A DNA stretch of 64,000 bases. Origin: Escherichia phage EJP2. The DNA is taken from the sequence record OQ411014.1. One strand, given 5' to 3'. Position 1 is the stretch's first letter. Each line of letters starts with the position of its first letter. The notes beneath the pieces are model-generated. The model had not been told where the DNA came from. It saw nothing but the letters and a program-made list of their open reading frames with translations, and ran no database searches. This document shows positions 4,738 through 40,280 of the stretch, piece after piece. The translations under genes and the position numbers were made by a program.

Positions 4738-4767
4738 TTGAGCATTCATAAAAAAATGTGATATAAT
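4738..4767 (+). promoter_or_regulatory. sigma70-type promoter driving RNA locus A
   Basis: TTGAGC (4738-4743), 18-nt spacer, TGTGaTATAAT (-10 hexamer 4762-4767); same architecture as the promoter at 58672. Confidence 0.65.
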
Positions 4768-4773
4768 TAGTAC

Positions 4774-5312: not shown

Positions 5313-5324
5313 TAATAAGAAAGT

Positions 5325-5456: not shown

Positions 5457-5476
5457 CCCTATAGAGAGAATATTAG

Positions 5477-5998: not shown

Positions 5999-6013
5999 TA
6001 GGATATACAATTC

Positions 6014-15115: not shown

Positions 15116-15727
15116 ATGAAGAATCTAGATAAATTTGAAGACCTTATCAGTACTGCAAAAGCGTTCGGGTATTATAATTTCATCCAACGCTTTGGCCTCA
15201 AAGAAGAAAGTAACCGTTTCTGTAAAGTATATCGTGGTATCTGTACTGAAGATTCGGAGTATCAGTTCTTGATTGGAACTATGCGTTCTAGTGGTGGGAT
15301 TACATACATCGTTGAAGATAATAAAACAGGTGAGTACTTGAACATGTTCGCTCTTCGGGCAGAAGGTGAATCTGAACTTACTGCGATGTTTAAAGACTGG
15401 ACACGACTATCATACAAATACGATAAGTTCAACATCTACAACTACGAAACCAAGAAGATGGAAGTTGTACCGAACATTGACATGTCTGAAGATGAACATT
15501 TTCAGTTCATGCTATTGCATGATATTCCAGATTATGATACAGTACAGTCAGTACTGAAATATCATAAAGAAGTTTCACCAATGCTCAAAGAACATAAGCT
15601 ATTCAATATCATCACGTACACGATGCCTGATTTTGATTTCACAAAGATGAAAATCAAACCTGAAGTAATTGACACGTGTATGGATTTGATACCTGAATCA
15701 TCTTTATACAAACACAAGGATATATAA
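15116..15727 (+). CDS. FQAS-motif family member
   Basis: Start moved to ATG 15116 (MKNLDKFEDL, AGGA RBS) because the ORF-track start 15017 lies inside the upstream gene; motif EDEHFQFMLLHDIPDYDTVQS. Confidence 0.7.
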   Translation: MKNLDKFEDLISTAKAFGYYNFIQRFGLKEESNRFCKVYRGICTEDSEYQFLIGTMRSSGGITYIVEDNKTGEYLNMFALRAEGESELTAMFKDWTRLSYKYDKFNIYNYETKKMEVVPNIDMSEDEHFQFMLLHDIPDYDTVQSVLKYHKEVSPMLKEHKLFNIITYTMPDFDFTKMKIKPEVIDTCMDLIPESSLYKHKDI

Positions 15728-16866
15728 TGACTACAATGCGTGAACTATATGACGATTTGAATGCATTAGTATCTGATGCTTTCTATCACAAAGATTTCGT
15801 TAGTAAAGGCTCTGGTACGTACCGGATTTTCTCGTACCGTCTAGCGAGTGCTGCTGACTTCGAAGAACGTAATGCCCTTGAGTCACGTGGTATTATGTTC
15901 GAGATTGATGCAGATACTAAAGAGCCAATTCGTATTGCTTCTCGGACTATGAAGAAGTTTTTCAATGCAGGGGAAACCCAAGAATTACAGTTCAAGAAGG
16001 ACGTACCATTCAGTACTATCAAGTGCGTAATGCCTAAGTTGGATGGTTCTGTTATTGCAACCTTCATGGACAATGATGGAATTATTCGTACTAAATCAAA
16101 CTCTTCGTTGGAGTCTGAGCACGCGTATTACAGTACTGAAATGATTCACGCCAATGATAAGTTACACGATGCAATCATTTGTGCTGAAGCTGCTGGTTAT
16201 ACTGTAATTATGGAATTTACTTCACCTGAGTACCGGATTATTCTTCCTTACCAGAAAGATGAACTAACTGTATTGCGTATCATTCATCGTGAAAGTGGTG
16301 AAAGCATTATGGGTTCTGACTTGAAGGAGAAGTTCCCAGTACTGTATGAGTTTTCGGTATTTGGTGATAAAGACATTCATGAATCATTCCCTGTTCGCAG
16401 TACTTTAGTACAGAGTATTGCTGCTGTTCGTGAAATGGAAGAGATTGAGGGATATGTTGTAGTACTACAAGATGGCACTACATTCAAGCTCAAGACGGAT
16501 TGGTATTGCAATTTACATTTTACCAAAGATAGTATTATCATTGATTCTCGACTATTCAAGGCAGTACTGGATGGTAGTTCAGATGATTTACGTCAATTGT
16601 TTGAAAATGATGAATATGCACTAAAAAAAGTCGAAAAAATGGAAAATTTGATTTTTTTGTGCTATAATAAGTTAGAAGAGGATGTGACTACTTTTTACGA
16701 AAAGTACAAGCACCTTGATCAAAAAACGTATGCTATGAAGGTGTTGGGTGAATTATCGAAAGATATGAACCGACAAGGACTTGCATTCAACTTGTACAAT
16801 GGTAAACCTGTTGATTACAAAGAAGTACTACTAAAGTACATGAAGAACGTGTTAGAAGGATTCTGA
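15727..16866 (+). CDS. rnlA: RNA ligase 1 (T4 RnlA-like)
   Basis: N-terminus GTYRIFSYRLAS...RGIMFEID...PIRIASRTMKKFFN parallels T4 Rnl1; nucleotidyl-transfer motif I KLDGS; about 379 aa, as in T4 Rnl1. Confidence 0.9.
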   Translation: MTTMRELYDDLNALVSDAFYHKDFVSKGSGTYRIFSYRLASAADFEERNALESRGIMFEIDADTKEPIRIASRTMKKFFNAGETQELQFKKDVPFSTIKCVMPKLDGSVIATFMDNDGIIRTKSNSSLESEHAYYSTEMIHANDKLHDAIICAEAAGYTVIMEFTSPEYRIILPYQKDELTVLRIIHRESGESIMGSDLKEKFPVLYEFSVFGDKDIHESFPVRSTLVQSIAAVREMEEIEGYVVVLQDGTTFKLKTDWYCNLHFTKDSIIIDSRLFKAVLDGSSDDLRQLFENDEYALKKVEKMENLIFLCYNKLEEDVTTFYEKYKHLDQKTYAMKVLGELSKDMNRQGLAFNLYNGKPVDYKEVLLKYMKNVLEGF

Positions 16867-17360: not shown

Positions 17361-17582
17361 ATGAAAGTTCAAATTATGCATAGTGTTGTCCAGGACATGT
17401 CTGTGGTGAAGTTTAGTACTCTAAGTGATTATTTCCGTTGTATCGAATTTATGGATACTAACGGTATACTGTGGGAACCAGTGAAGTACAGTTCCAGAAA
17501 CGATACCGCTAGTATTCGCGTTGATGAGGTAGCGTTGAATAAAATTTGTAAACGATATGGAGTTCAGAAATGCCTAAACTAG
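17361..17582 (+). CDS. hypothetical protein (73 aa)
   Basis: ORF track; GGAG RBS. Confidence 0.6.
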   Translation: MKVQIMHSVVQDMSVVKFSTLSDYFRCIEFMDTNGILWEPVKYSSRNDTASIRVDEVALNKICKRYGVQKCLN

Positions 17583-18499
17583 TACTGACAGTTGGATTGC
17601 CTGGGTGCGGGAAAAGTACTTGGGCTACAGAAGAAGTAAAGAAATCCAAACGCAAAACTGTCATTCTAAATCGTGATGATATTCGTGAAACGATGTTCGG
17701 TGGTAACTGGGAATATCGTTATAGTAACGAGAACGAAAAATACGTCCAGAATACTCTCGCTTTTCAAGCCCAAGAAGCAGTGAAAAATGGCTGGGATATT
17801 ATCGTTGCAAATACTAATCTCAACCCAAAAGAACAAAACATGTGGAGTACTTTTGCAAAGGAGAATTCATATACCTTAGTACATCAGGACTTCTTCAAGG
17901 AGTTCAAGAAAGGTAAATCCTTTGTGCATGATTACTTCGCAATCAATGCTTTCGTGAAACATTGTAAAGAACGTAACCTAAAACGTTTGAAGTCTGTTCA
18001 AGAAAGTGTAATTGACCAAATGGCAACTTCGTACTATTACAGTACTGTTACGCCTCCACCAGTGATTGAAGGTGATGGTCTAAAATATTACATCGTAGAT
18101 ATTGACGGAACTCTAGCACATATGTTAGATTATCGTTCACCCTATGATGAAACAAAAGTTCATCTTGATGTACCTGATGAGTTCGTAATTTCAGTACTGC
18201 ACGCTCTTGTAAAAGACCCGTCAGTACGTATTATCCTCATGAGTGGTCGTCACGTCACCTGTAAAGAGCTAACACAAGAATGGTTAGCGAAGCATTCAGT
18301 ACCGTATCATGAGCTTCATATGCGTGCTGCGGACGATGTACGAGGGGACGATGTGGTGAAATATGAGTTGTATATGCAAGAAGTATACAACAAAAACAAA
18401 CGAGTCCAAGTTGTGTTCGATGACCGTCAAAAAGTTGTGAACACATGGCGTGAGTTGCTTGGCCTCAAAACCTTCCAGGTACAGCCTGGAAATTTCTAG
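17570..18499 (+). CDS. pseT: polynucleotide 5'-kinase/3'-phosphatase (T4 PseT-like)
   Basis: N-terminal P-loop GLPGCGKSTWA and NRDDIR; TNLNPKE; C-terminal HAD phosphatase DIDGTLA ... DDR..VV..W; collinear with T4 Pnkp. Confidence 0.9.
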   Translation: MPKLVLTVGLPGCGKSTWATEEVKKSKRKTVILNRDDIRETMFGGNWEYRYSNENEKYVQNTLAFQAQEAVKNGWDIIVANTNLNPKEQNMWSTFAKENSYTLVHQDFFKEFKKGKSFVHDYFAINAFVKHCKERNLKRLKSVQESVIDQMATSYYYSTVTPPPVIEGDGLKYYIVDIDGTLAHMLDYRSPYDETKVHLDVPDEFVISVLHALVKDPSVRIILMSGRHVTCKELTQEWLAKHSVPYHELHMRAADDVRGDDVVKYELYMQEVYNKNKRVQVVFDDRQKVVNTWRELLGLKTFQVQPGNF

Positions 18500-28661: not shown

Positions 28662-29081
28662 TTATTCGTCATCTTTGTTGACAAAATCCAAATCTAGTAC
28701 ACTAGGTGGTGGTACATTACAAAAATATAAATCCCACGGTTTGTAGATTGATTCACCTGAACTTAACTTAATTTTGTGCGTTTGAAATGAAGTAACAAAT
28801 GCTTGATCTATTCGCATAAAAAATGTATTCTTACCAAGCAATGTAGACAGTACTGAATCAGATGCACTTGTGTCCAAGTACTGACCATCTTTATCAGTAT
28901 ATGTCAATCTGATAAAGCTGAAAATATTACCATCAGTGTCAACTAAATCAAAGGTGTTATCAGAGCGTTGTCTGAAAATATTGATGTTGTTTTTGATTAC
29001 ACCATTAATGTTTGCAACTGGGACACAGAATCCACCAATACTAAAAGGTAGTTCACCTCTACCTGCAATCACTTTTGCCAT
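28662..29081 (-). CDS. hypothetical protein (139 aa), paralogue of the N-terminal domain of 29920..30576
   Basis: MAKVIAGRGELPFSIGGFCVPVA...FRQRSDNTFDLV aligns with MGKPIARRDQFPFDISGINVNAA...SKQRSTIMFDLQ. Confidence 0.75.
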   Translation of the reverse strand: MAKVIAGRGELPFSIGGFCVPVANINGVIKNNINIFRQRSDNTFDLVDTDGNIFSFIRLTYTDKDGQYLDTSASDSVLSTLLGKNTFFMRIDQAFVTSFQTHKIKLSSGESIYKPWDLYFCNVPPPSVLDLDFVNKDDE

Positions 29082-29119: not shown

Positions 29120-29178
29120 TACATAATATTTATGTTACTTGTTCATTTTTTGTACAGCTAATGCTAAATAAATTTATA

Positions 29179-29207
29179 TTGACACTGATAAGCAAACATG
29201 CTAGAGT
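29179..29207 (+). promoter_or_regulatory. candidate sigma70-type promoter
   Basis: TTGACA (29179-29184), 17-nt spacer, TGcTAGAGT (29202-29207). Confidence 0.45.
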
Positions 29208-29238
29208 AATCATCTTACACATTCATTGTAGAGGGTAT

Positions 29239-29853
29239 ATGAAAAAAATTCCATTAGAATTGTTACAGATATTTCTTATCTGGTTGCTATGTACTGTTCC
29301 CAGTTCAGCAGAAAGTTTGTCCAGTACTATCTTTAGAGATAAAGAGAATATTGTTCATTTTGGTGCTCCAGTTTCATTCGAGGCATATAGCAAATTACTG
29401 AAAATGTATAAGATAAAACCATTTTCTGAAATTAGACTCACCAGTAATGGTGGAGAATATGATGCTGGTATGAAGATTGCTCACTTAGTTTACACCAATG
29501 ACATATCAGTCTTTGTTCCAAAGTACTGTGCAAGTGCATGTACATTTATATTTTTTGGAGCTAGGGTTGAGCACCGTGACATTGCACCAACGGCAATGTT
29601 GGGATTACATAATGTGTCGTTTGGTATGAACAACTCAACGGGTGAAGACGCGAATAACTCGTCGATAACAGTCAAGGAGGCACTTGATTTTGCACAAGAA
29701 GCAGTTGTAAGATCAGGAATGATGATTTCATTCTATTCTGCGAATGGGATACCAAGTGATGTACTACTTCAAGTATCACAAACATATGGTCAAGGTATCA
29801 TAAATGTGCAACGGGCTGACTTAGTTCGTTGGGGTGCAATACAAGCGAAATAA
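29239..29853 (+). CDS. secreted ClpP/S49-like (crotonase-fold) protein
   Basis: Start moved to ATG 29239: signal peptide MKKIPLELLQIFLIWLLCTVPSSAES; TSNGGEYDAGMKIAHLV and CASACTFIFFG resemble the SPGG and Ser regions of ClpP/SppA-type proteins. Confidence 0.55.
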   Translation: MKKIPLELLQIFLIWLLCTVPSSAESLSSTIFRDKENIVHFGAPVSFEAYSKLLKMYKIKPFSEIRLTSNGGEYDAGMKIAHLVYTNDISVFVPKYCASACTFIFFGARVEHRDIAPTAMLGLHNVSFGMNNSTGEDANNSSITVKEALDFAQEAVVRSGMMISFYSANGIPSDVLLQVSQTYGQGIINVQRADLVRWGAIQAK

Positions 29854-29878
29854 AAAAGGAGCCTAAAGGCTCCTTTTT
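29852..29878. terminator. bidirectional terminator
   Basis: AAAAAA-GGAGCC-taaa-GGCTCC-TTTTT. Confidence 0.8.
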
Positions 29879-29919: not shown

Positions 29920-30576
29920 TTACGCCCCCAAAATAGTAACATTACATTGTGCAGTAAAATTACCATCAACACTAGTTGCTGTTATAATAGCATTCCCAGC
30001 CAACAAACCAGTGACCAGACCAGAATCAGAAACTGAAGCTACTGTTGGTTCGGAAGATTCCCACAGTACTGATTGGTTTGTAGCATCCTCTGGTGTGAAA
30101 ATTGGCGTGAGTTGGTCAGTTTCACCTGTCTGAATAGAAGATGTTACTTTATTCAATGCAAGACCAGTAACATACACTGAACGATCACGTTGACTTGCAT
30201 AAGAATTAAGATAAAATGATGAACCATCGCCTAGGATGATTTTATTTAAGAATAGTTTTATTGCAAAACCGACCAGTTCATCTTTTTCTGGATCATATAC
30301 CTTAATACAAAATTTACCAGGGTCAAGTTTAGCAGCAAGTTCTTCATCGGTATCACTTAGCAATAACGGTTGTTTGTTCTTATCCAAAGCTGTTATTTGA
30401 AGAAATTCATATAGTGAATCACCAGTTTTGGATTGCAAGTCAAACATGATAGTACTTCTCTGTTTTGATATATTAATAGTAGTTAGTTCTGTACCATCTT
30501 TCAATACGGCAGCGTTGACATTTATACCCGAAATATCGAACGGAAATTGGTCGCGGCGAGCAATTGGTTTACCCAT
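29920..30576 (-). CDS. protein with C-terminal bacterial Ig-like (Big_2-type) domain
   Basis: C-terminus VTGLALNKVTSSIQTGETDQLTPIFTPEDATNQSVLWESSEPTVASVSDSGLVTGLLAGNAIITATS is a typical Big_2 pattern; N-terminal domain paralogous to 28662..29081. Confidence 0.75.
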   Translation of the reverse strand: MGKPIARRDQFPFDISGINVNAAVLKDGTELTTINISKQRSTIMFDLQSKTGDSLYEFLQITALDKNKQPLLLSDTDEELAAKLDPGKFCIKVYDPEKDELVGFAIKLFLNKIILGDGSSFYLNSYASQRDRSVYVTGLALNKVTSSIQTGETDQLTPIFTPEDATNQSVLWESSEPTVASVSDSGLVTGLLAGNAIITATSVDGNFTAQCNVTILGA

Positions 30577-30633
30577 TGTAACCTCCTTATAGTTTACAAT
30601 TTTAAATATTTATCCATAATGTGCTAAAAAAAC

Positions 30634-30663
30634 TTGCACATTCCAAGATAATACTGATATAAT
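30634..30663 (+). promoter_or_regulatory. sigma70-type early promoter
   Basis: TTGCAC (30634-30639), 18-nt spacer, TGaTATAAT (30658-30663). Confidence 0.65.
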
Positions 30664-30716
30664 AGACTCATCCAACGCGAAGTTGGTGTAAACAAACTAC
30701 TAAGAGGACTTAGACA

Positions 30717-31790
30717 ATGAAAAACGAAAACGTATATGTATACATCGGACGCTTCCAGCCAGCACATAAAGGCCACGAAGCAGTACTTGAAAATGCAATC
30801 AAAAAAGCTGACCGTGTTGTTATTCTAGTGGGTAGTGCTGAACAAGCTCGTTCCCCTAAGAACCCGTTCACCTTTGAAGAACGCCAAAAAGTACTGGACG
30901 GTATCACAACTCGTCTTGCACAAGATGAATGGGCGAAAGGTCGCCGTGTGATGATCGACATCCTACCTGTACATGACTTCGTATACAACAACCAGAAATG
31001 GCTCATGGAAGTTCAAGAACAAGTTCGTTCCTGCACTAAAAGTGAAAACATTACTCTAACTGGTTGTCGTAAACATGGCGATGATAGTACTTTCTATCTT
31101 GAGTTCTTCCCTCAGTGGAATCAAGATTTCATTACAGAAACTACACAAGAAGATGTTGGTATCAATGCCACTCAACTACGTAACCAATTCTTCAGTACTA
31201 AACAAGTACCTGAACAAAATGTACTTACTCCTGAAACTGTAGAGTTCCTTGAGAAGTTCAGCGTAGAAAAGAAAGATGTACTAGATTACCTAGTGAAAGA
31301 ACATGCTTTTACTACAAAATATAAAGCAGACATGAAGAAACAACTACCATTTGACACAATCCCATTCCTGACTGGTGATAGTCTGATTGTCTGTGCAGGT
31401 CATGTTCTTGTAGGTATTCGTCGCTCTGAACCAGGCAAAGGTCAGTACTGTCTACCTGGTGGGTTCTTCGATGCATGGAAAGATAAAGATCAAGTTGATA
31501 CTGCTTTACGTGAACTCAAAGAAGAAACCAAAATTGATGTACCAATGAATAAACTACGCGGTTCTATTGAACGTGTAGAAGAGTTTGGTGACTTTGACCG
31601 TGACCCACGCTGGCGTGTAATCACTAAGTGCATCTACATCAAACTTGACGGTACTAAACTACCTAAAGTAAAAGGCTCAGATGATCTCAAAGGTTGCTTC
31701 TGGATGCCTATGACTGAAATTGCTAAAAATCGTGCTAACTTCTTTGTTGATCACGTTTCCATCATTGACACGTTCTTAGGAATCCTGTAA
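30717..31790 (+). CDS. natV: bifunctional NMN adenylyltransferase / Nudix hydrolase (NadM-Nudix, KVP40 NatV-like)
   Basis: N-terminal IGRFQPAHKGH (HxGH); C-terminal Nudix box GGFFDAWKDKDQVDTALRELKEETKI. Confidence 0.85.
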   Translation: MKNENVYVYIGRFQPAHKGHEAVLENAIKKADRVVILVGSAEQARSPKNPFTFEERQKVLDGITTRLAQDEWAKGRRVMIDILPVHDFVYNNQKWLMEVQEQVRSCTKSENITLTGCRKHGDDSTFYLEFFPQWNQDFITETTQEDVGINATQLRNQFFSTKQVPEQNVLTPETVEFLEKFSVEKKDVLDYLVKEHAFTTKYKADMKKQLPFDTIPFLTGDSLIVCAGHVLVGIRRSEPGKGQYCLPGGFFDAWKDKDQVDTALRELKEETKIDVPMNKLRGSIERVEEFGDFDRDPRWRVITKCIYIKLDGTKLPKVKGSDDLKGCFWMPMTEIAKNRANFFVDHVSIIDTFLGIL

Positions 31791-31791
31791 T

Positions 31792-32331
31792 ATGAATGTA
31801 ATTTCTCTGACTCCAGGTTTGAAAGCAGACTTGGATGCAGTAAAGGAAAGTAAGTACAATAAGATAACTAGCTGTACTGAACTAATCTTGAGTACTGATG
31901 GTTATTCTGAATGTAATCAATTGTTCGTTGATGCACTTCAACACATTGATAAAAAACTGTATCTAACCGATTTTCTTTATCTTATTCAGAGAACGTGGAT
32001 TAGCAATGCACAAAACAGAAATCACCTGAATTCAGGTGAAAGTACTTCAAGCTATGGTTATTGGAAATATAACTTCGCTGGAGTATCATCGGATACTTTA
32101 TACATTACGAACTATGTTCCGTCTGGAAATATCAGAATTGTCGATTCAGTACAACATTATGAATATTATGATATTGACACGGAAAAGCCAAGTCTGTATA
32201 CTATATCCGATATCGTAATTAGAAATGAAAAGACATTGTTCAACATGGTATTTCCAACGACTACTAAACTGTTTTCGAAGGAATACATGAAGTTCACAAT
32301 TCCATTGTCTCTGATTATGAACAACCAATAA
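31792..32331 (+). CDS. hypothetical protein (179 aa)
   Basis: ORF track; lies between the two NAD salvage genes. Confidence 0.65.
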   Translation: MNVISLTPGLKADLDAVKESKYNKITSCTELILSTDGYSECNQLFVDALQHIDKKLYLTDFLYLIQRTWISNAQNRNHLNSGESTSSYGYWKYNFAGVSSDTLYITNYVPSGNIRIVDSVQHYEYYDIDTEKPSLYTISDIVIRNEKTLFNMVFPTTTKLFSKEYMKFTIPLSLIMNNQ

Positions 32332-32379
32332 GAACGCGGAGTTCTTATATAACATCAACTACCAAAGAGGTAATATAAA

Positions 32380-33852
32380 ATGCAAAACGTAAATTTCATC
32401 CTAAACGCAGATAGTTACAAGCACTCTCATTTACTAATGATGAAAGAAGGTGTTCAAGCTCTTGAATCAAACATCATTGCTCGTAAACCATCTAAATTCA
32501 CCAGTCATGTAGTTATGATGGGTCTTCAGATTTTCGTTCAGGAATATCTGGATATCACAATTACTGCGGCTGATATCGATGAAGCAGAGATTGAAACAAA
32601 CGAACGTGGTGATGATTTTGACCGCGACTTCTGGGAACACATCGTGAATGTACACAAAGGTAAACTACCTTTACATATCCGTGCTATCCCTGAAGGTACA
32701 GTAGTTCCAGTTGGTATGCCGTTGGTTCGCTCCTTCAGTACTGACCCACGTACTATGGTACTCGCTAGTTTCGTCGAAACTCAATTACAACGTGCAATCT
32801 GGTTCCAAACTACTGTTGCATCTAATGCTCGCAGTATCAAGGAATTTCTTGCTGATACTATGGAACGTCATGCTGGTCATCGCTTTGTGGATTATCATCT
32901 ACATAACTTCGGCTGTCGTGGTGCAAGTTCCTATGAAACAGCAATGCTCGCAGGTGTAGCTCATGCCGCTCTATTCAGTGGCTCTGACTGCCTATTAGCA
33001 AACCGTAGTATCAAATACTACTACAATACTACTAAACCATATGTTAGTAGTGTTATGGCGAGTGAACACAGTGCTACATGTTCTAACTCCGATGCAGACA
33101 AGCGTGATGATTCAGCAATGGCGTTGAAGATGGTTCGCCTATGGGAAAAGAAAGTAGATAAGTTCATTGCTAATGGTTCAGTTGGTGCACCCCCAATTGT
33201 TTCTGTAGTAATCGATACTTATGATGCTTATCGCTTTGTTCGTGAGTTCATCGGTACTCGTCTAAAATCTACAATCGAAGAGATTGCAGCTAAATGTCCA
33301 AGTGCTAAACTAGTAATGCGTCCTGATAGTGGTAATCCACTAACTATGCCAATCGAAATCGTATCTATCCTTATGGAGAAATTCGGTTCAGTACTGAATG
33401 CTAATGGCATGAAAGTACTTCCATCTTTCATTGGTGTTCTTCAGGGCGACGGAGTTTCAGAAAGTTCAATCCGTGAAATCGTCCACAACCTAGAGAAAAA
33501 GAACTACTCTCTAGAGAATCTAATCTTTGGTATGGGTGGTAAAAACTCCCACGTCGAAGGTGGTCGTGATGCATATTCTTTCGCCCAGAAAGGTTGTGCA
33601 CAGCAACTAGCTGATGGTACTTGGGAAGATTTGTTCAAAGATCCTATTACTGACGTTGGGAAAAAATCCCTTCGTGGTCGTGTAACTACTTACTTGTGCA
33701 AAGAAAGTGGGAAGATGATGGCTGAACGAATCGAACTACAAGAAGTAAATCCTTTCTTAGAAGATATGATGGTTGACATTTTTGTAAATGGTGATATCAT
33801 GAATCTAAGCTCTTTTGATGATGTACGTGCTCGTGCGAACAAGGGATTGTAA
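32380..33852 (+). CDS. nadV: nicotinamide phosphoribosyltransferase (Nampt/NadV)
   Basis: N-terminal NFILNADSYKHSH; 490 aa; RPDSGNP; GVLQGDG; family-typical layout. Confidence 0.88.
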   Translation: MQNVNFILNADSYKHSHLLMMKEGVQALESNIIARKPSKFTSHVVMMGLQIFVQEYLDITITAADIDEAEIETNERGDDFDRDFWEHIVNVHKGKLPLHIRAIPEGTVVPVGMPLVRSFSTDPRTMVLASFVETQLQRAIWFQTTVASNARSIKEFLADTMERHAGHRFVDYHLHNFGCRGASSYETAMLAGVAHAALFSGSDCLLANRSIKYYYNTTKPYVSSVMASEHSATCSNSDADKRDDSAMALKMVRLWEKKVDKFIANGSVGAPPIVSVVIDTYDAYRFVREFIGTRLKSTIEEIAAKCPSAKLVMRPDSGNPLTMPIEIVSILMEKFGSVLNANGMKVLPSFIGVLQGDGVSESSIREIVHNLEKKNYSLENLIFGMGGKNSHVEGGRDAYSFAQKGCAQQLADGTWEDLFKDPITDVGKKSLRGRVTTYLCKESGKMMAERIELQEVNPFLEDMMVDIFVNGDIMNLSSFDDVRARANKGL

Positions 33853-33860
33853 TATCAATG

Positions 33861-33885
33861 GGGAGTCTTAGTACTCCCTTTTTTG
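33861..33885 (+). terminator. intrinsic terminator
   Basis: GGGAGT-cttagt-ACTCCC followed by TTTTTT. Confidence 0.7.
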
Positions 33886-33895
33886 CGAGGTTTAT

Positions 33896-34534
33896 ATGTG
33901 GTCTAAAGTAAAAGATAATCTAGATGCGTACATTATCCCACTACACGATGTGGTATGGCTACGAGATGAAGTACGTAAGGCAATGACCGAAGGTTATGCG
34001 TTTCCAGCAGAAGAAGATGAAATTCAAAAAGATGCATCAGTAGTTTCTGATGAAATGATTATCGGTTATCCAGATCCAGAAAATGAAAATATGTTCATGT
34101 TTGGATTCAAAGATGATGATTGTCTGGACGACCAAAGTATCATTGACCACATTACACATCGCTGTTGGGAAGATATTAGTGAAGCTGGTATTGTTTCATT
34201 TGGTGAAATGGAAAGTTTTTCAGCAGTTGTGTATAATGAAGATGTTCCAAATTTCCGTAAGCACAAGACAGAAGTGGATAACTTCCTAACTCATTTGATT
34301 GGTCGATCTATTGTTAGTGATGAGCCATCATTCCTCAATAACACTGCGGAATGTAAAGAATTCATCTTAGAACGATATGATTATGAAAATATGAAACGTA
34401 CTGCGACGAATAAGTGGGGCAACTTCAATTATCGTTTATTTGAAAATGATGAAGGAGATGTCGTGACAATCGTTACATACAATGCTAAACTGATCTCCTA
34501 CTATAACTTCAGATACAAAGACGAGGATCTATAA
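33896..34534 (+). CDS. acidic hypothetical protein (212 aa)
   Basis: ORF track; GAGG RBS. Confidence 0.65.
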   Translation: MWSKVKDNLDAYIIPLHDVVWLRDEVRKAMTEGYAFPAEEDEIQKDASVVSDEMIIGYPDPENENMFMFGFKDDDCLDDQSIIDHITHRCWEDISEAGIVSFGEMESFSAVVYNEDVPNFRKHKTEVDNFLTHLIGRSIVSDEPSFLNNTAECKEFILERYDYENMKRTATNKWGNFNYRLFENDEGDVVTIVTYNAKLISYYNFRYKDEDL

Positions 34535-34535
34535 A

Positions 34536-34748
34536 ATGGTTTTGACTTATCTTTTCATGTTCGGTATGTACGCAGTAACCACTGGTTGTGCATGGTTCCT
34601 GACTTCAATTACATTCATTGGTTGGGCCAATCGTGAAGGTAAAATCAAATACGGCTTGTGGTTCCGTGAGTTCAGTCCTTTTGTAGTACCACTATGGATT
34701 ACAACTATTGTAATTTATATTCTCATCCCAGTAGTATTCTTGGGTTGA
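34536..34748 (+). CDS. small membrane protein (70 aa)
   Basis: Two hydrophobic helices. Confidence 0.6.
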   Translation: MVLTYLFMFGMYAVTTGCAWFLTSITFIGWANREGKIKYGLWFREFSPFVVPLWITTIVIYILIPVVFLG

Positions 34749-34788
34749 CATTACAGTACTGTTCAAGATTTTCTAATAAGGATTATAT

Positions 34789-35391
34789 ATGACTTGTATT
34801 ATCGCTTTTACTGATGGTAAATCATCCTTCATCGCAGGTGACAAACTAGGTTCCAACGGCTTTACTAAATCAGTAATGGTTGAACCAAAAGTCTTTGAGA
34901 AAGAGTTTCATCGTGTTAGTACCAATGATGAAGGTACTGTGCGGACGCGTGAAACGATGGCACTCGGTTATACTACGTCATTTCGTATGGGACAACTTCT
35001 GTCTTACAATCTAGTACTGCCTGACCAAGATGCGAATCAATCCTTCAGTCAGTACCTGGTTCAGAAAGTAATTCCACTTATTCGTCATATGTTCAAAGAT
35101 GAATGGGGTGCACGTGATAGCTCACAAGATATTGGTGGTGGTCAGTTCATTATTCTGCATAACCACACTATCTACGAAGTTCAAGGTGACTTCTCAGTAC
35201 TGCAACCTAAGACACAAATTACTGCTGTAGGTTCAGGTACTTACCATGCAATTGCAGCTATGCAAGCACTACAAAGTGTTTCATCTGATACTAAGAAAGA
35301 TCTACTACATTACGTACCAACGATTTTTGATATTGTCAGTACTAATGTAACTTCAGTATCTGCTGAACATGATGTATTGCATTACAAATAA
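34789..35391 (+). CDS. Ntn hydrolase, proteasome beta/HslV-like
   Basis: MTCIIAFTDGKSSFIAGDKLGSNG: Thr2 would be exposed as the N-terminal nucleophile; parallels HslV TTIVSVRRNGHVVIAGDGQ. Confidence 0.6.
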   Translation: MTCIIAFTDGKSSFIAGDKLGSNGFTKSVMVEPKVFEKEFHRVSTNDEGTVRTRETMALGYTTSFRMGQLLSYNLVLPDQDANQSFSQYLVQKVIPLIRHMFKDEWGARDSSQDIGGGQFIILHNHTIYEVQGDFSVLQPKTQITAVGSGTYHAIAAMQALQSVSSDTKKDLLHYVPTIFDIVSTNVTSVSAEHDVLHYK

Positions 35392-35582
35392 TGGTTGATA
35401 TATTTTTCATTGTAATGATGATGCTTGGTGTATTCGGGTTGATTGCAATTACCCGAATCACTGATAGACCATACACAGATAACATTGAACGCGTTTGTAT
35501 GTTTCTACTAAGTACTATAATGTTGGTTATCGTTGGTGTAGTAGGTTCTATGTTTGCAGAACTAATTCTAATTGCGTACTGA
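35391..35582 (+). CDS. small membrane protein (63 aa)
   Basis: Two TM helices; TAATG overlap. Confidence 0.6.
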   Translation: MVDIFFIVMMMLGVFGLIAITRITDRPYTDNIERVCMFLLSTIMLVIVGVVGSMFAELILIAY

Positions 35583-35605
35583 TGTACGCTTTTTAAGGAG
35601 TACTT

Positions 35606-35839
35606 ATGGACTTAGCAGATTTGGTTTATGTTGTATCGTTAGTACTGTACGGTATTTGTATAGTACTGACTATGTTAGAATGGAGTACTTGGAGTGATGG
35701 TTTCAAAGAACTAAATGGTGAGTTTACCTCTAAATACTATGCAATTAGTTATTTTATCATGAAGTTAGGTATGATTGGAATGTATGGTATTTTGGGATAT
35801 CTATTCTACTTCTTACCTGAACATATGAGATTATTTTAG
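35606..35839 (+). CDS. small membrane protein (77 aa)
   Basis: Two TM helices; AAGGAG RBS. Confidence 0.6.
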   Translation: MDLADLVYVVSLVLYGICIVLTMLEWSTWSDGFKELNGEFTSKYYAISYFIMKLGMIGMYGILGYLFYFLPEHMRLF

Positions 35840-35849
35840 GAGATATAAA

Positions 35850-36281
35850 ATGGCAGGAAAAGGATATTGCAGCCTAAAACTTGATAAAGCACAAGCAAAG
35901 GAATTGAAACGGATTTTAAAAATCGGTGGCGTTGAATGCTTAGACCCTTCGGATTTGCATTGTACTTTAATGTACGATGAAAGTAATCCTAACATCAAAA
36001 TGCTCAAGAACACAAAGACTTATAAAGCTAAAGTAACTGGTGTTAGTAAATTGGGTGATGCGATTGTATTGGATTTGGAATCCCCTGGCATCAAGAAACG
36101 TCATCAGGAATTGAAGAATGCTGGTTATAAGCACTCATTCCCTGAATTGAAAATTCATATGAGCATCAACTACGATCCAAAAAGTACTGATAAGGATTTA
36201 CTAGAACTCTTTATCAAATTGAAGGGTATTCCTTCAGTACTGATATTTGGTAATGAAAAATTTGAATCTCTAAAGCCGTAA
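35850..36281 (+). CDS. 2H phosphoesterase, Acb1-like candidate (anti-cyclic-nucleotide signalling)
   Basis: Two H-x-T/S motifs (LHCTLMY at His37, IHMSINY at His103) 66 residues apart in a 143-aa protein, matching the size and spacing of the T4 Acb1 / LigT-type 2H fold. Confidence 0.5.
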   Translation: MAGKGYCSLKLDKAQAKELKRILKIGGVECLDPSDLHCTLMYDESNPNIKMLKNTKTYKAKVTGVSKLGDAIVLDLESPGIKKRHQELKNAGYKHSFPELKIHMSINYDPKSTDKDLLELFIKLKGIPSVLIFGNEKFESLKP

Positions 36282-36291
36282 GGAGTATATA

Positions 36292-37050
36292 ATGGACGTG
36301 AATAAATTTCTTGACAACAAAGGACAAAAGCGTCTGTTAGTACTAACTGGTGCGGGTTTCAGTGCGGAATCTGGAGTTAGTACATTTCGTGATGCAGAAG
36401 ATGCCCTATGGGAAGGTGTGAAGATTAACGATGTATGTAACATTGCGAGCTTAGGCTTTAAGTACGCACAAGTACATGCATTCTACAACACACTAAGAAC
36501 TATCATCAAGGACAAAGAGCCTAACGAAGCACACTATGAAATTAGCGTTATGGAGTCAATGTACGGGGATAACTTCCTACACATGACTGCTAATATCGAT
36601 GATTTATATGAGCGTGCTGGTGGCACTGCTATGCACCTTCATGGCAACATCAAAGAAGTCATTGAGAACTATTCAATGGCACATAACGACTTTACAGTAC
36701 TGGATGTTGGATATGAAGTTTATATTCCAAAGGAAGGTGTATTTGCTAAACCTAATGTAGTATTCATTGGTGAATCAGAGCGTTATGTGAATAACCAGCG
36801 TATTCCGTTGTATGAAGAACGAAATAAAGTACTGGCATCCTTGACAGACTTAGATACCGTTGTTATCATTGGTTCATCGGATACAATCCTGAAGTGGAGT
36901 TCGTTGGTTGGTTTAGGCACACCAGCTTATACCATCAACATCAACACAAGAAAGAATGACACTGACTGGGCGTTCGATAAGAAGATTTACAAGCCAGTAA
37001 CTAAAGCGTTATTGGAATTGAGGGAGTTAGTTCTTACACGGATGGGATAG
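36292..37050 (+). CDS. Sir2-family NAD-dependent protein (deacylase or ADP-ribosyltransferase), no Zn-ribbon cysteines
   Basis: GAGFSAESGVSTFRD, TANIDDLYERAG, HLHGN, KPNVVFIGE, IIGSSD motifs; no Cys pairs between HLHGN and VVFIGE. Confidence 0.8.
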   Translation: MDVNKFLDNKGQKRLLVLTGAGFSAESGVSTFRDAEDALWEGVKINDVCNIASLGFKYAQVHAFYNTLRTIIKDKEPNEAHYEISVMESMYGDNFLHMTANIDDLYERAGGTAMHLHGNIKEVIENYSMAHNDFTVLDVGYEVYIPKEGVFAKPNVVFIGESERYVNNQRIPLYEERNKVLASLTDLDTVVIIGSSDTILKWSSLVGLGTPAYTININTRKNDTDWAFDKKIYKPVTKALLELRELVLTRMG

Positions 37051-37059
37051 GAGTGAGTT

Positions 37060-37614
37060 ATGGATTTTACAGAGATACCATTCGGACAACGCAGTGAAAG
37101 ATTTGACTGTGCGTTCGTTTGGATCTACGCTAAGAATTGCACACCATACAAGGATTATCCATATAATGATATTCCTAACGTATCTTTAGTACTGACAGAG
37201 TTACGCTTTGATGGTCTAATGGGTGCGGTTGGTGGAGCAGTTGAGGATGATGATCCTTCATTGGAAGTGGCAGTGCAACGTGAAGCCTTAGAGGAAATAA
37301 ACTTTTCTCTTGACATTACTAATCTGAAACCGTTATTATCATTACGTTCCCCATACGGAGCACATAACCATAGTTTCTCGTACGAAGTACAGTACGATGA
37401 GCTACTAGAGATTCGGAACAACGCATACAAAGGTGCTCACTTCAGTGCTGAAAATGCGGGTGTAAATCTGATTCACGTATGTCGCTATACGAAGGGAAGA
37501 GGGAACGAATGTGGTTACAATAACATTCTTACACAGAATTTTATTGGCACATCCAAACTGGAACTAGAGCGTTTAGTTCATAATGAAAATTTACTAATAA
37601 ATTACCTTGCATAA
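37060..37614 (+). CDS. Nudix hydrolase
   Basis: Nudix box GGAVEDDDPSLEVAVQREALEEINF. Confidence 0.75.
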   Translation: MDFTEIPFGQRSERFDCAFVWIYAKNCTPYKDYPYNDIPNVSLVLTELRFDGLMGAVGGAVEDDDPSLEVAVQREALEEINFSLDITNLKPLLSLRSPYGAHNHSFSYEVQYDELLEIRNNAYKGAHFSAENAGVNLIHVCRYTKGRGNECGYNNILTQNFIGTSKLELERLVHNENLLINYLA

Positions 37615-37624
37615 AGGATAAAAT

Positions 37625-37957
37625 ATGTATAAGATGTTTATAGACGACCTTCGGGATGCAGAGAAGCATTACCCAAATGAAGGATTCATCGTCACAAGGA
37701 CTTACAATGAAGCTGTACAGTACGTACAAGAACATGGTCTACCTAGTTTTGTTTCATTCGACCATGACTTGGGCGACACTGACAGTACTGATGAGAAGAC
37801 TGGATATTCTTTTGCTAAGTTCCTCATCGAGTACATGATTGATAACGATTTGCGGGAACCGTTTGAGTACTTTATTCACAGTGCTAATCCAGTTGGTGCA
37901 GAGAATATCAAACAGTACTTGCAAAATGGGTTCAACTTTATCCAAGGGCAAGCATGA
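37625..37957 (+). CDS. receiver-like domain protein (cyclic-phosphate-processing receiver type, tentative)
   Basis: MFIDDLRD ... SFDHDLG ... HSANPVG pattern recalled for this phage-associated receiver-fold family. Confidence 0.4.
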   Translation: MYKMFIDDLRDAEKHYPNEGFIVTRTYNEAVQYVQEHGLPSFVSFDHDLGDTDSTDEKTGYSFAKFLIEYMIDNDLREPFEYFIHSANPVGAENIKQYLQNGFNFIQGQA

Positions 37958-38244
37958 AAGTAATAACATTTATTCTGATTTTGATTGTTGTTGTTGGTAT
38001 TCGCCTTAAAATAGCGGAGAACCAATACAACACTGAAAGACTGAATATTACGAAAGAATCTGGAACAGTAGTTGCAACTGGACAATGCAACAAATACACT
38101 TGTGCTTACTCTGTAAAAACCTCTAGTGGTTCTACAGTGAACAGTACTGGTGACACTCCGGTAAGTCTCGGTCAAATCGTATACCGTGAATGCTGGGAAG
38201 AAAGGGTCAGGGGTCCGCGTTGTTACGTAGACTTTAGACCATAA
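37954..38244 (+). CDS. membrane-anchored small protein (96 aa)
   Basis: N-terminal TM helix VITFILILIVVVGI; ATGA overlap. Confidence 0.6.
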   Translation: MKVITFILILIVVVGIRLKIAENQYNTERLNITKESGTVVATGQCNKYTCAYSVKTSSGSTVNSTGDTPVSLGQIVYRECWEERVRGPRCYVDFRP

Positions 38245-38269
38245 AACACTATCATGAAAAGGGAATTTT

Positions 38270-39724
38270 ATGAAAAAATATGCTATTGATACAAACGTAC
38301 TTCTAAGCGATCCAAACGCAGCAACCGCTTTCAAAGGTGCTACAGTGGTTCTACCATTTACAGTACTGGAAGAAATGGACTCCATCAAGAGTCGTGGTGT
38401 TGACGTTAGCCGTGATGCACGTGTAGCAATTCGCAATATCAGTAACATCCTGGAAGACGCGTCTCATGAAGAGATTAGTACTACTGGGGTTGATATGTCC
38501 AAACTACATCCACATTTAGATTCCGACAGTCGTCTAATGATTGTTACATCTGAAGAAGCTGAAGCACTTCTACGTGTTGCAGGTATTGATAAGTCCGATG
38601 CTGAACTTACAAAAGTTGCTACACTAATGAACAGTACTGTACCGGATGACAAGATTATTCTTGTTGCTCTAGCTACAGAATCAGTACTGGTTACTCGTGA
38701 TATCAACATGCGTATCAAAGCTATGGCTTATGGTGTTGAAGTTCAGGACTATCGTAGTGATGTTACTATTTCCGATTCTGACCTACTACATATTGGGAAC
38801 CACAAACTAGAGTTTTCGTTCTGGGATACCATTGCGGATCGTGGTTTAGAAGTTTTCAGTACTAAAGAAGGTCGTAACACTTATCAACTAATTGCTAAAG
38901 ATGCAATTCAGGATCTACTACCAGAAAATCTATGCGTTGGTGACTATCTATATGATGACACTGATTTGCTAATGGTATATGATGGAGAAGGTGATCGTGA
39001 GTTCTCTGATGGTGAAGTTGATGACACAGTGTACTCCGTGTTCATTGATGTTGGTCAACACAGTGCAATGCGTACTAAGATTTGGGATATCAAAGCTAAG
39101 AACGTGAAACAAGCAATGGCAATCAACAGTATTCTTGACCCTAATGTTCACTTGACAGTACTGTTAGGTTCTGCGGGTACAGGTAAGACTTTGATTACTC
39201 TAGCATGTGCACTAGAACTAACATTAGAGAAGCGTCAGTACGATAAAGTTATTTTCTCTAAAACCCAAGACTCACAGTTTGATGAAATTGGTTTCTTACC
39301 AGGAACCGAAATGGAAAAAATGCTTCCGAATTGTGGACCTGCACTGGATGCATTGGAATTCCTTCACAAAGATGATGCTAACCCTCAAGGTTCAATTGAA
39401 GAAATCATCAAACGTAATGTTGTACAATTCAAAGCACTGAACTTTATTCGTGGACGTTCGTTTACCAATACAATTCTAGTTGTTGATGAATTCCAAAACA
39501 TTACTCCGGCTCAAGCTAAAACTATCTTGACACGGGCAGGAATGAACTGTAAAGTTATCATCATGGGTAACTTAGCACAGATTGATAGTAAGTTTATCAG
39601 TTCTGTAAACAGCGGTTTGACCTATGTAGTTGAGAAGTTCAAAGATTGGGAAGGTTGTCGTATCATCGAACTCGAAGGTGTTGTACGTTCTGCACTAGCT
39701 GAATTCGCTGAAGAAAATATGTAA
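38270..39724 (+). CDS. phoH: PIN-domain / PhoH-like ATPase fusion (PhoH2/YlaK type)
   Basis: N-terminal YAIDTNVLLSDP (PIN); Walker A GSAGTGKT; VVDEFQN; RGRSF. Confidence 0.85.
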   Translation: MKKYAIDTNVLLSDPNAATAFKGATVVLPFTVLEEMDSIKSRGVDVSRDARVAIRNISNILEDASHEEISTTGVDMSKLHPHLDSDSRLMIVTSEEAEALLRVAGIDKSDAELTKVATLMNSTVPDDKIILVALATESVLVTRDINMRIKAMAYGVEVQDYRSDVTISDSDLLHIGNHKLEFSFWDTIADRGLEVFSTKEGRNTYQLIAKDAIQDLLPENLCVGDYLYDDTDLLMVYDGEGDREFSDGEVDDTVYSVFIDVGQHSAMRTKIWDIKAKNVKQAMAINSILDPNVHLTVLLGSAGTGKTLITLACALELTLEKRQYDKVIFSKTQDSQFDEIGFLPGTEMEKMLPNCGPALDALEFLHKDDANPQGSIEEIIKRNVVQFKALNFIRGRSFTNTILVVDEFQNITPAQAKTILTRAGMNCKVIIMGNLAQIDSKFISSVNSGLTYVVEKFKDWEGCRIIELEGVVRSALAEFAEENM

Positions 39725-39731
39725 TATATTG

Positions 39732-39759
39732 GGGGAGTTTCAATACTCCCCATTCATTT
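39732..39759 (+). terminator. candidate terminator
   Basis: GGGGAGT-ttcaat-ACTCCCC followed by ATTCATTT (weak U tract). Confidence 0.5.
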
Positions 39760-39967
39760 GGACAGTACTATGAGTTTAGATTTGAACTTAGTTCGACACG
39801 CACTGTCACGGTTTGATTGGGCTGATACATTATTTTCGTTAGCTGAACAATCATTATCAACGGTTCCGGCTGATAACACTGACAGGCTTAAGCGTTTGTC
39901 GTTGTTATACAAAACACAAGCCTTAGTGAATCATGACAGAATTTTGAATAGAAGAAAAATGTTATAA
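39758..39967 (+). CDS. hypothetical protein (about 65-69 aa)
   Basis: ORF track; start may be ATG 39770. Confidence 0.45.
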   Translation: MDSTMSLDLNLVRHALSRFDWADTLFSLAEQSLSTVPADNTDRLKRLSLLYKTQALVNHDRILNRRKML

Positions 39968-39971
39968 ATTA

Positions 39972-40001
39972 TTGAGACAAAACTCAATACTATGATATAA
40001 T
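39972..40001 (+). promoter_or_regulatory. sigma70-type early promoter
   Basis: TTGAGA (39972-39977), 18-nt spacer, TGaTATAAT (39996-40001). Confidence 0.7.
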
Positions 40002-40031
40002 AGATACATCAACAACAAAGAGGAAATAAAC

Positions 40032-40280
40032 ATGGAACAGAATAAAAAAGAAGCTCAAAACTCCCGTCGCGTAGCAATGGATAAACTATCCGCTCTAACA
40101 GAACTCAAGAAACTACGTCGTGACGGTATCCTAACTCGTCAACAGTTCCGTCGTGAAGTATGGGACAAAGGTCTACAAACTGGCGTGAAAGGTGTTCCAG
40201 AAATCACTGCTTTCGAAGTTGTGAAAGTAGATGGTAAGAAAGCACTAACCGTTCAAGTTCGTCCTTGGGGTCGTATCTGA
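40032..40280 (+). CDS. small basic protein with SHOCT-like motif (82 aa)
   Basis: LTELKKLRRDGILTRQQFRREV matches the SHOCT pattern (L..L..L...G.iT.eEF); monocistronic between a strong promoter and a terminator. Confidence 0.7.
   Translation: MEQNKKEAQNSRRVAMDKLSALTELKKLRRDGILTRQQFRREVWDKGLQTGVKGVPEITAFEVVKVDGKKALTVQVRPWGRI

Follow-up and report, generated by a model that had tools for sequence, protein, structure and literature searches.

Our analysis of a 64,000-nucleotide stretch of Escherichia phage EJP2 (sequence record OQ411014.1), hereafter the window, revealed that the region between positions 30634 and 39751 is composed of two separable conserved units and variable cargo, all on the same strand and tightly packed. 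We favor, with a probability of roughly 0.55, the explanation that the first unit is a NARP2 operon for the reconstitution of nicotinamide adenine dinucleotide (NAD+) and that the second, separable from it, is a sirtuin-centered block that would consume NAD+ in the processing of RNA ends. Both conserved units have already been published, one experimentally and one computationally, and EJP2 is a further instance; the finding is chiefly their re-identification in another phage. New here are the promoter-to-terminator limits of NARP2, the modular presence and absence of components at the locus, a membrane-anchored open reading frame (ORF) in the core of the second unit, the loss of zinc ligands in every phage sirtuin homologue compared, an HNFG motif in Nampt, and a conserved 5' hairpin in the NMNAT leader. 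The parts of the region, in window coordinates, are as follows.

30634-33885, plus strand: Unit A, comprising a promoter, NMNAT-Nudix, a lineage-specific ORF, Nampt, and a terminator
33896-35839, plus strand: variable cargo between the two units
35850/36292-39751, plus strand: Unit B, comprising an optional 2H gene and a core of sirtuin, Nudt16-like Nudix, cREC, a membrane-anchored protein, and PIN-PhoH2

EJP2 is a RaK2-like jumbo coliphage of 349 kb, and the paper describing it is silent on the genes of 30634-39751. The proteins of this region correspond to EJP2 entries WEM33182-WEM33195, with an exact match for all nine that were looked up. In GenBank, the 2H protein, the second Nudix, the HslV-like protein, and cREC are labeled "hypothetical" and PhoH2 is labeled "ATPase"; the four "hypothetical protein" labels can now be corrected to 2H/Acb1-family, Nudt16-like Nudix, cREC, and HslV-like. 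A preliminary description of the same DNA had treated positions 30634 to 37957 as one probable counter-defense module. Its ORFs were all recovered from the ORF list, on the plus strand and with identical coordinates, and its seven domain calls held, with Pfam and PHROGs in agreement, the HslV-like call being a remote match only. ORFs on the minus strand of the region lie within plus-strand genes and reach at most 98 amino acids (aa), except one of 190 aa (37876-38448) over the membrane-anchored ORF and the PhoH2 start; no family search was run on them, and they are regarded as spurious because they overlap conserved plus-strand genes.

The features of Unit A are given below.

30634-30663, plus strand: sigma-70-type promoter with an extended -10 element (TTGCAC-18 nt-TGaTATAAT) and an A-rich tract upstream
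30672-30687, plus strand: 5'-proximal stem-loop of the NMNAT transcript (CCAAC-GCGAA-GUUGG)
30717-31790, plus strand: NadM-type NMNAT with a Nudix (ADP-ribose pyrophosphatase) domain, Pfam CTP_transf_like and NUDIX, identical to WEM33182.1
31792-32331, plus strand: lineage-specific 179-aa protein between the NARP2 genes
32380-33852, plus strand: nicotinamide phosphoribosyltransferase (NadV/Nampt), Pfam NAMPT_N and NAPRTase
33860-33885, plus strand: intrinsic terminator after Nampt, GGGGAGUCUUAGUACUCCC followed by U6, from the terminator scan

By homology, Unit A can be securely assigned as a NARP2-type NAD+ reconstitution operon. The NMNAT-Nudix protein matched the NCBIfam bifunctional NMNAT/Nudix models over its full length (E 4e-79, below the equivalog cut-offs), is about 32% identical over 98% of its length to NadM of a KVP40-like vibriophage, and carries the motifs GRFQPAHKGH (HxGH) and, in its Nudix domain, RELKEE. 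Nampt matched PHROG 448 (E 2e-129), scored 403.4 bits with NCBIfam NF006629 against a cut-off of 405, aligned over its full length with solved bacterial and human NAMPT enzymes (E 1e-65 to 4e-72), and keeps the EHS, RPDSG, QGDG, and GMGG motifs. The Nmnat gene lies 590 nt upstream of the Nampt gene in the same operon. Apart from the HNFG of Nampt described below, these architectures and motifs match the NadV/NatV (NARP2) route, as the preliminary description had recognized. By the same homology, Nampt would join nicotinamide and phosphoribosyl pyrophosphate (PRPP) to form nicotinamide mononucleotide, the NMNAT domain would convert this product to NAD+, and the Nudix domain, like that of NadM, would split ADP-ribose (ADPR); the predicted effect is that NAD+ is kept up during infection.

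In KVP40, Nampt and Nmnat produce NAD+ from nicotinamide, PRPP, and ATP, and the NARP2 genes abolish type I Thoeris and DSR2 defense; NARP2 raises NAD+ even without a defense system, and Nmnat accompanies this Nampt in 94% of the phages that carry it (Osterman et al., "Phages reconstitute NAD+ to counter bacterial immunity"). EJP2 has the same two enzyme families, NAMPT_N with NAPRTase and a HIGH-nucleotidyltransferase with Nudix, but differs in that its two genes share one operon, running from promoter to terminator, and flank a lineage-specific third ORF, whereas a KVP40-like phage has no Nampt within 7 kb of its NMNAT gene. The sirtuin, NMNAT, and Nampt genes are dispersed rather than adjacent in KVP40-type phages, and NadV/NatV was not found at the sirtuin locus of KVP40 or in another 50 kb. 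The third ORF of the EJP2 operon (31792) matched no family in Pfam, PHROGs, or NCBIfam and gave no functional lead; it is fast-evolving, and one possibility is that it binds or inhibits a host factor. At the RaK2 locus (L008, 4539-5564), an HNH endonuclease gene takes its place between NMNAT and Nampt.

Both limits of Unit A are conserved. In the NMNAT leaders aligned from EJP2, Salmonella phage 7t3, Serratia phage BF, Erwinia phage Hallingskeid, and Klebsiella phage RaK2, TG-n-TATAAT was invariant and was accompanied by a -35-like TTGnnACA with an A-tract before it, at the same position in different genera. The early promoter proposed in the preliminary description is thus a site conserved in four other phages, but promoter-like sites in general are not enriched in the region, a generic scan finding 54 against 45.5 +/- 7.4 in shuffles. 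A G+C-rich hairpin with a T-run occupies the same place after Nampt in 7t3, BF, Hallingskeid, and RaK2, and together the conserved promoter and the conserved terminator make NMNAT-ORF31792-Nampt a bounded promoter-to-terminator unit. The leader hairpin was predicted at the same place in the five phages, with energies of -6.3 to -9.2 kcal/mol (at about 6275-6291, 6204-6223, 2663-2679, and 3408-3427 in the relatives' loci L001, L002, L007, and L008, respectively). Its stems differ between phages (CCAAC/GUUGG, CCGA/UCGG, CAAAGC/GCUUUG, and AGAGAG/CUCUCU), which looks like covariation, and the hairpin may have an mRNA-stabilizing or regulatory role. Rfam returned no match at gathering score anywhere in the window and two chance-level matches (E ≤ 1) in 30500-40100; an NAD+ riboswitch in the NMNAT leader was rejected, the leader being too short and lacking an Rfam match.

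The separability of the two units emerged from a comparison of the locus in seven RaK2-like phages, whose ORFs were searched with the window proteins. Sirtuin, Nudt16-like Nudix, cREC, the 96-aa membrane-anchored protein, and PIN-PhoH2 were invariant in all seven, and the flanks were also conserved, with dCMP deaminase upstream and NrdD downstream. The preservation of gene order among relatives, on which the preliminary description had staked its proposal, indicates that the adjacency is not due to chance. The idea of a single module did not hold up: NARP2, with its own conserved promoter and terminator, is present at the locus in EJP2, 7t3, BF, Hallingskeid, and RaK2 and absent from it in the Asteriusvirus members slurp01 and JNE01, which keep the sirtuin block, and no close Nampt orthologue from Asteriusvirus was found among the best 60 Nampt matches. 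The 2H and HslV-like genes have been gained and lost independently; the former is at the locus in EJP2, 7t3, BF, and Hallingskeid and absent in RaK2, slurp01, and JNE01, and the latter is at the locus in EJP2, 7t3, slurp01, and JNE01 only and absent in BF, Hallingskeid, and RaK2. The right edge previously drawn at 37957 cuts through a conserved block, to which the 96-aa ORF at 37954-38244 and PIN-PhoH2 at 38270-39724 also belong; since the order sirtuin-Nudix-cREC-membrane protein-PhoH2 is invariant, the boundary should move to about 39750.

The features of Unit B are given below.

35850-36281, plus strand: 2H phosphoesterase of the Acb1 family (Pfam Acb1 PF23474), optional
36292-37050, plus strand: CobB-like sirtuin of a phage clade without zinc-binding cysteines (Pfam SIR2)
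37060-37614, plus strand: Nudt16-like Nudix hydrolase (Pfam PF22327, 63.7 bits against a cut-off of 27)
37625-37957, plus strand: cREC (cyclic-phosphate-processing receiver-like) protein (Pfam cREC_REC PF20274, 91.4 bits against a cut-off of 27)
37954-38244, plus strand: 96-aa protein with an N-terminal membrane anchor (PHROG 14661 "membrane protein", transmembrane-like residues 3-21)
38270-39724, plus strand: PIN and PhoH ATPase, a PhoH2-type RNA helicase/RNase (Pfam PIN_4 77.7 bits, PhoH 147.8 bits)
39732-39751, plus strand: terminator-like hairpin after PhoH2, with only a weak T-run in the window

This gene set has been recognized before by comparative genomics. In its treatment of the cRec domain, Iyer et al. 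2021 (Viruses 13:63) defined the domain, linked it by neighborhood to NAD+/ADPR enzymes of jumbo phages, and proposed that it processes cyclic ADPR (cADPR) or 2',3'-cyclic phosphates. Section 3.7.3 of Iyer et al. 2022 (Viruses 14:1977) describes a sirtuin-2H-Nudix-cREC-PIN linkage in Serratia phage BF, with a Nudix-cREC fusion and, within that section, no Macro partner, and predicts KptA-like NAD+-dependent RNA repair for this neighborhood. EJP2 carries the domains of the sirtuin-centered neighborhood type 1 as that section defines it, with the same genes in the same order, BF being a direct relative. Three differences were apparent: Nudix and cREC are separate genes in EJP2 and fused in BF (gp113, with Nudt16-like residues 19-180 and cREC residues 195-294), an extra, conserved membrane-anchored ORF absent from the gene list of section 3.7.3 lies between cREC and PhoH2, and the 2H member is optional within the RaK2-like lineage. 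No Macro domain was detected among the 14 ORFs of the region scanned with Pfam.

The sirtuin has its best sequence relatives among CobB and the class III sirtuin deacylases (E 5e-24 against CobB 6rxj/1s5p), with which it shares a Rossmann motif for NAD binding (here GAGFSAESG) and a catalytic His (in HLHG); within the alignment, H117 and G118 do not vary. Its scores lie far below the NCBIfam equivalog cut-offs. The difference from the CobB deacylases is that all four zinc-ligand cysteines are missing in EJP2 and the related phage sirtuins: no cysteine was found at the CobB zinc positions in EJP2 or in the homologues of 7t3, BF, Hallingskeid, RaK2, slurp01, KVP40, and ECP26, and the corresponding region of the phage sirtuins is replaced by a conserved GYE-x-Y-x-P segment. 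The family is present in 991 phage records. A defense-type SIR2 NADase (ThsA, DSR, or SIR2-HerA) was considered and rejected, as no PADLOC family matched at E ≤ 0.01. The sirtuin of RaK2 (L008, 7701-8438) has a degenerate NAD-binding motif, SGNGLSMDSGFDLY compared with GAGxSxESGxxTFR, and keeps the catalytic His.

Adjoining the sirtuin upstream, the 2H protein scored 63.8 bits with PF23474 (cut-off 27), compared with only 19.2 bits with 2_5_RNA_ligase2 (cut-off 27). Its best solved relative is Acb1 (7t26, E 3.8e-4), whose LHTTIVY and HITLSY align with LHCTLMY and IHMSINY of the EJP2 protein as two HxT/S motifs. At the sequence level, the earlier assignment to the Acb1 type is therefore upheld by membership in the Pfam Acb1 family and retention of both motifs. 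The EJP2 protein resembles Acb1 (7t26/7t27) in its 2H fold, its length of about 145 aa, its two HxT/S motifs, and a score above the Acb1 gathering threshold; it differs in being only distantly similar to the solved enzyme and in lying directly upstream of a sirtuin, unlike Acb1 in its T4 gene context. It could instead be a phosphodiesterase of cyclic phosphates or of ADP-ribose-1'',2''-cyclic phosphate (Appr>p). Acb1 has been cited as a degrader of defense signals. Candidate substrates of the EJP2 enzyme are cyclic-oligonucleotide signals and cyclic phosphates on RNA or ADPR.

Downstream of the sirtuin, the Nudt16-like Nudix hydrolase aligned with solved NUDT16/X29 enzymes (E 7e-8 to 1e-6), and its Nudix box REALEE corresponds to RELREE of NUDT16. 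The cREC protein carries its DHDLG motif at residues 46-50, and eight residues (D7, D8, R10, D46, H47, D48, H85, and N88) are invariant in 74 homologues. Its AlphaFold model, with a predicted local distance difference test (pLDDT) value of 94.6, shows a four-stranded alpha/beta fold. No sequence relative was found in the PDB and no solved fold is close, the nearest being response-regulator receivers with weak similarity (E at least 3e-3, template modeling score 0.44-0.6). A role as a two-component receiver domain was rejected in view of the four strands, the missing fifth beta-alpha unit, the weak fold similarity, and the lack of a kinase nearby. Each of the seven relatives has the 96-aa protein between its cREC and PhoH2 genes, and the protein carries four cysteines in its C-terminal part. 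PhoH2, conserved in all relatives, matched the NCBIfam model "RNA 5'-3' helicase PhoH2" with E 3e-44 and a score of 151 against an equivalog cut-off of 680. Gaps within the sirtuin block measure 9-10 nt, and the start at 37954 overlaps the cREC stop by 4 nt, a spacing that indicates co-expression. A hairpin is found at the same place after PhoH2 in six phages, and the next extended -10 promoter follows at 39972-40001.

About 20 loci were sampled for the co-occurrence of these genes across lineages. The rV5-like phage ECP26 has the order Pnkp | Rnl1-cREC-sirtuin. In Aeromonas phage CC2, cREC adjoins a CCA-adding enzyme and an HD hydrolase; in Tunturi_5, RtcB lies in the same 12-kb stretch as cREC, about 4.6 kb away; in a Cellulophaga phage, a Macro gene occurs within about 3 kb of cREC; and on a metagenomic contig, an Rnl2-type ligase was found near cREC. 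The ECP26 ORF at 5672-6022 of its locus (L012), annotated as the second half of an "RNA ligase 1 and tail attachment protein", is itself a cREC protein (hidden Markov model E 5.8e-6). Two RNA repair genes also occur within the EJP2 window, outside the region itself.

15727-16866, same strand as the region: T4-type RNA ligase 1 (Rnl1; RNA_lig_T4_1 and T4_Rnl1_C)
17570-18499, same strand as the region: polynucleotide kinase/phosphatase (Pnkp; AAA_33 and HAD_PNKP)

With both enzymes, the phage carries a complete healing-and-sealing tRNA repair pair; no tRNA genes were found in the 64-kb window. For the sirtuin, Nudix, cREC, and PhoH2, we rank RNA-end processing as the probable function above the clearance of ADPR or cADPR, with modest confidence, because an RNA helicase/RNase accompanies them invariantly and, in other lineages, the partners are RNA ligases and kinases.

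The KptA/Tpt1 pathway removes the RNA 2'-phosphate, converting NAD+ to ADP-ribose-1'',2''-cyclic phosphate, which is passed to a 2H cyclic phosphodiesterase, a phosphatase, and a Nudix enzyme. To the extent that section 3.7.3 of Iyer et al. 2022 sets out the parallel, EJP2 would resemble this pathway in combining an NAD+-consuming transferase, a 2H enzyme, a predicted phosphoesterase, and an ADPR-type Nudix; it differs in that its region has no KptA/Tpt1 homologue, a sirtuin being proposed instead, and in that cREC rather than Macro is the proposed phosphatase. We infer every activity of Unit B, and the metabolic coupling of the two units, from the domains, motifs, conservation, gene fusion, and transcription signals described here. 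The sirtuin would act like KptA/Tpt1 and move ADP-ribose from NAD+ onto a phosphorylated RNA end, the 2H and cREC enzymes would resolve cyclic phosphates at RNA ends or in ADP-ribose-1'',2''-cyclic phosphate, the Nudt16-like Nudix would cleave the ADP-ribose pyrophosphate, and PhoH2 would handle the RNA. Like Acb1, the 2H enzyme could cleave cyclic-oligonucleotide immune signals, either alongside this role or in its place. Nicotinamide from the sirtuin reaction could serve as the substrate of Nampt, and the Nudix enzymes could convert ADP-ribose products to AMP and ribose phosphate. Such a supply of nicotinamide to Unit A would explain the adjacency of the two units in part of the lineage.

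A more specific version of this model would make the core an NAD+-dependent machine for RNA-end modification and repair, in which the sirtuin, in place of a Tpt1/KptA enzyme, ADP-ribosylates phosphorylated ends and cREC is a new Asp/His phosphoesterase, and, where NARP2 is adjacent, would join the two in a closed NAD+ cycle that supports survival of both RNA-cleaving and NAD+-depleting defenses; we put this version forward tentatively and regard it as more probably wrong than right in its full form. If the sirtuin block acts as predicted, it would provide the first case of a sirtuin with demonstrated action on RNA ends, cREC would receive its first assigned activity, and the phage would have an answer to RNA-cleaving defenses beside its NAD+-rebuilding answer to NAD+-depleting ones. 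EJP2 is cultivable and its host has been published, and the NARP2 operon, the optional Acb1-family gene, and the sirtuin core are directly testable by deletion.

Several observations weigh against the favored explanation. The sirtuin keeps an xGE loop, a motif typical of protein deacylases, and the best family match of the 2H enzyme is an anti-CBASS enzyme (CBASS, cyclic-oligonucleotide-based antiphage signaling system), which fits signal degradation at least as well as RNA-end processing. Rnl1 and Pnkp lie 12-15 kb upstream of the region and are not adjacent to it, and a T4-type Pnkp alone already resolves 2',3'-cyclic phosphates. The synteny of Unit B is found mainly within one collinear phage lineage and may therefore have been inherited rather than selected. 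Four metagenomic phage contigs have no sirtuin or Nudix within 6 kb of cREC, so that cREC function does not depend on them. The genes of 33896-39724 have no recognizable sigma-70 promoter of their own, so that read-through of the terminator, or an unrecognized type of promoter, has to be presumed. In Unit A, the HDFG of solved Nampts is replaced by HNFG in EJP2 (residues 173-180, LHNFGCRG), 7t3, BF, Hallingskeid, and RaK2; the Asp of HDFG sets the specificity for nicotinamide over nicotinate in human NAMPT, and the substrate preference of the EJP2 enzyme may therefore differ. Literature searches on cREC and phage sirtuins, including work after 2022, returned nothing experimental and only two comparative-genomics papers, both from one group.

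The strongest competing explanation stays close to the preliminary description and treats the whole region as one counter-defense island, in which NARP2 rebuilds NAD+, the 2H enzyme destroys the signals of CBASS or type III CRISPR, and the sirtuin, the second Nudix, and cREC clear glycocyclic ADPR (gcADPR) isomers, histidine-ADPR (His-ADPR), or ADPR-1''-phosphate (ADPR-1''P). The Acb1 family membership and best solved relative of the 2H enzyme speak for it, as does variable cargo between conserved flanks, which is typical of anti-defense hot spots. The Nudix-cREC fusion would fit the two-step degradation of an ADPR derivative, and Iyer et al. 2021, in their discussion of cRec, put forward cRec, Macro, NADAR, and Nudix as potential degraders of cADPR-type signals. 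On the other hand, NARP2, the 2H gene, and the sirtuin block have been gained and lost independently, with a conserved terminator between; sirtuins use up NAD+ and do not clear ADPR, and what one would contribute to signal degradation is not obvious; and we know of no activity on any cyclic ADPR isomer for these families. The cREC and sirtuin contexts elsewhere contain RNA ligase, Pnkp, RtcB, and a CCA-adding enzyme rather than anti-signaling genes, and the invariant partner at this locus is the PIN-PhoH2 RNA helicase/RNase. We therefore consider the single island doubtful. Of the counter-defense reading as first proposed, the NARP2 part is solid and the 2H part plausible, while the roles given to the sirtuin, Nudix, and cREC are unproven and RNA-end repair is at least as likely for them as cADPR clearance.

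Reprogramming of the host appears less likely still. In this case, the sirtuin would be a protein lysine deacylase or ADP-ribosyltransferase that, like CobB, modifies proteins, whether of the host or of the phage, the Nudix and cREC proteins would clear O-acyl-ADP-ribose or reverse ADP-ribosylation, and NARP2 would supply the NAD+. The closest solved and curated relatives of the sirtuin are indeed deacylases of the CobB/Sirt5 class (E 5e-24), with the NAD-binding residues, catalytic His, and xGE loop kept, and the solved relatives of the Nudix are NUDT16 enzymes, which also process protein-linked ADP-ribose. Yet the zinc module of characterized deacylase sirtuins has been lost in the whole phage clade, the partners handle RNA (PIN-PhoH2 here, Rnl1 and Pnkp in rV5-like phages), and the Macro domain, the usual partner of ADP-ribosylating sirtuins, is missing among the ORFs scanned. 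Finally, it is very unlikely that the genes have no functional link and are merely auxiliary metabolic genes of a nucleotide-metabolism region (dCMP deaminase, DNA ligase, and NrdD being nearby) that are neighbors by descent, with NARP2 serving general NAD+ demand: the conserved dCMP deaminase and NrdD flanks, the single lineage of the close relatives, the rise in NAD+ caused by NARP2 even without a defense system, and the non-adjacency of sirtuin, NMNAT, and Nampt in KVP40-type phages would fit such a view, but neither the fusion of Nudix with cREC nor the pairing of cREC and sirtuin in an unrelated phage family depends on RaK2-lineage synteny, co-expression is indicated by gaps of 9-10 nt and an overlap of stop and start, and NARP2 demonstrably overcomes Thoeris and DSR2.

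The variable cargo between the two units contains the following genes.

33896-34534, plus strand: acidic 212-aa protein (PHROG 36508, function unknown)
34536-34748, plus strand: 70-aa hydrophobic protein (grand average of hydropathy (GRAVY) 1.12, transmembrane-like residues 49-67)
34789-35391, plus strand: remote HslV-like Ntn-hydrolase homologue (PHROG 1040 "HslV family", E 9e-21)
35391-35582, plus strand: 63-aa protein with two transmembrane-like segments (GRAVY 1.52, residues 2-20 and 43-61)
35606-35839, plus strand: 77-aa protein with an N-terminal transmembrane-like segment, from hydropathy

The acidic protein matched only PHROG 36508, over the C-terminal half of its 400-position profile, which gave no functional lead; its homologues in Hallingskeid and RaK2 lie elsewhere, downstream of PhoH2. 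The three tiny membrane proteins noted earlier were confirmed at 34536-34748, 35391-35582, and 35606-35839, each with one or two strongly hydrophobic 19-residue segments; the first matched no family, and weak homologues of the third occupy the corresponding position in Hallingskeid, slurp01, and JNE01. The HslV-like protein had no Pfam match above threshold. It aligned with HslV in the PDB with E 0.026 over 48 residues and scored 25.8 bits with the NCBIfam HslV model (cut-off 137, E 7e-6); Thr2, a potential N-terminal nucleophile, is present.

Upstream of the region, the coding strand flips twice, with ORFs at 28662-29081 (minus), 29161-29853 (plus), and 29920-30576 (minus). The minus strand encodes a Big_2 Ig-domain protein and another ORF, and the plus strand encodes a ClpP-like protease with a hydrophobic N-terminus and a borderline Pfam score (19.9 bits against 20.2). 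A hairpin that looks bidirectional lies at 29853-29878. Just upstream of NMNAT, Hallingskeid and RaK2 have an ORF annotated "protease" in this position.

Across the window, TGnTATAAT occurs 13 times on the plus strand and 3 times on the minus strand, and several of these sites, with a TTGACA-like -35 element, lie directly upstream of genes. The T4-type late promoter motif (TATAAATA) was matched once in the whole window and not at all in the region, below chance expectation. At 4759-4815, within an ORF-poor gap (4737-5476, 740 nt without an ORF of at least 90 aa), no more than 10 nt separate an extended -10 promoter (TTGAGCA...TGATATAAT) from a strong hairpin (ACGGAUGGUUAGCUAUCCGU, -11.6 kcal/mol), after which comes a T-run, an arrangement that could represent a very small RNA or an attenuator.

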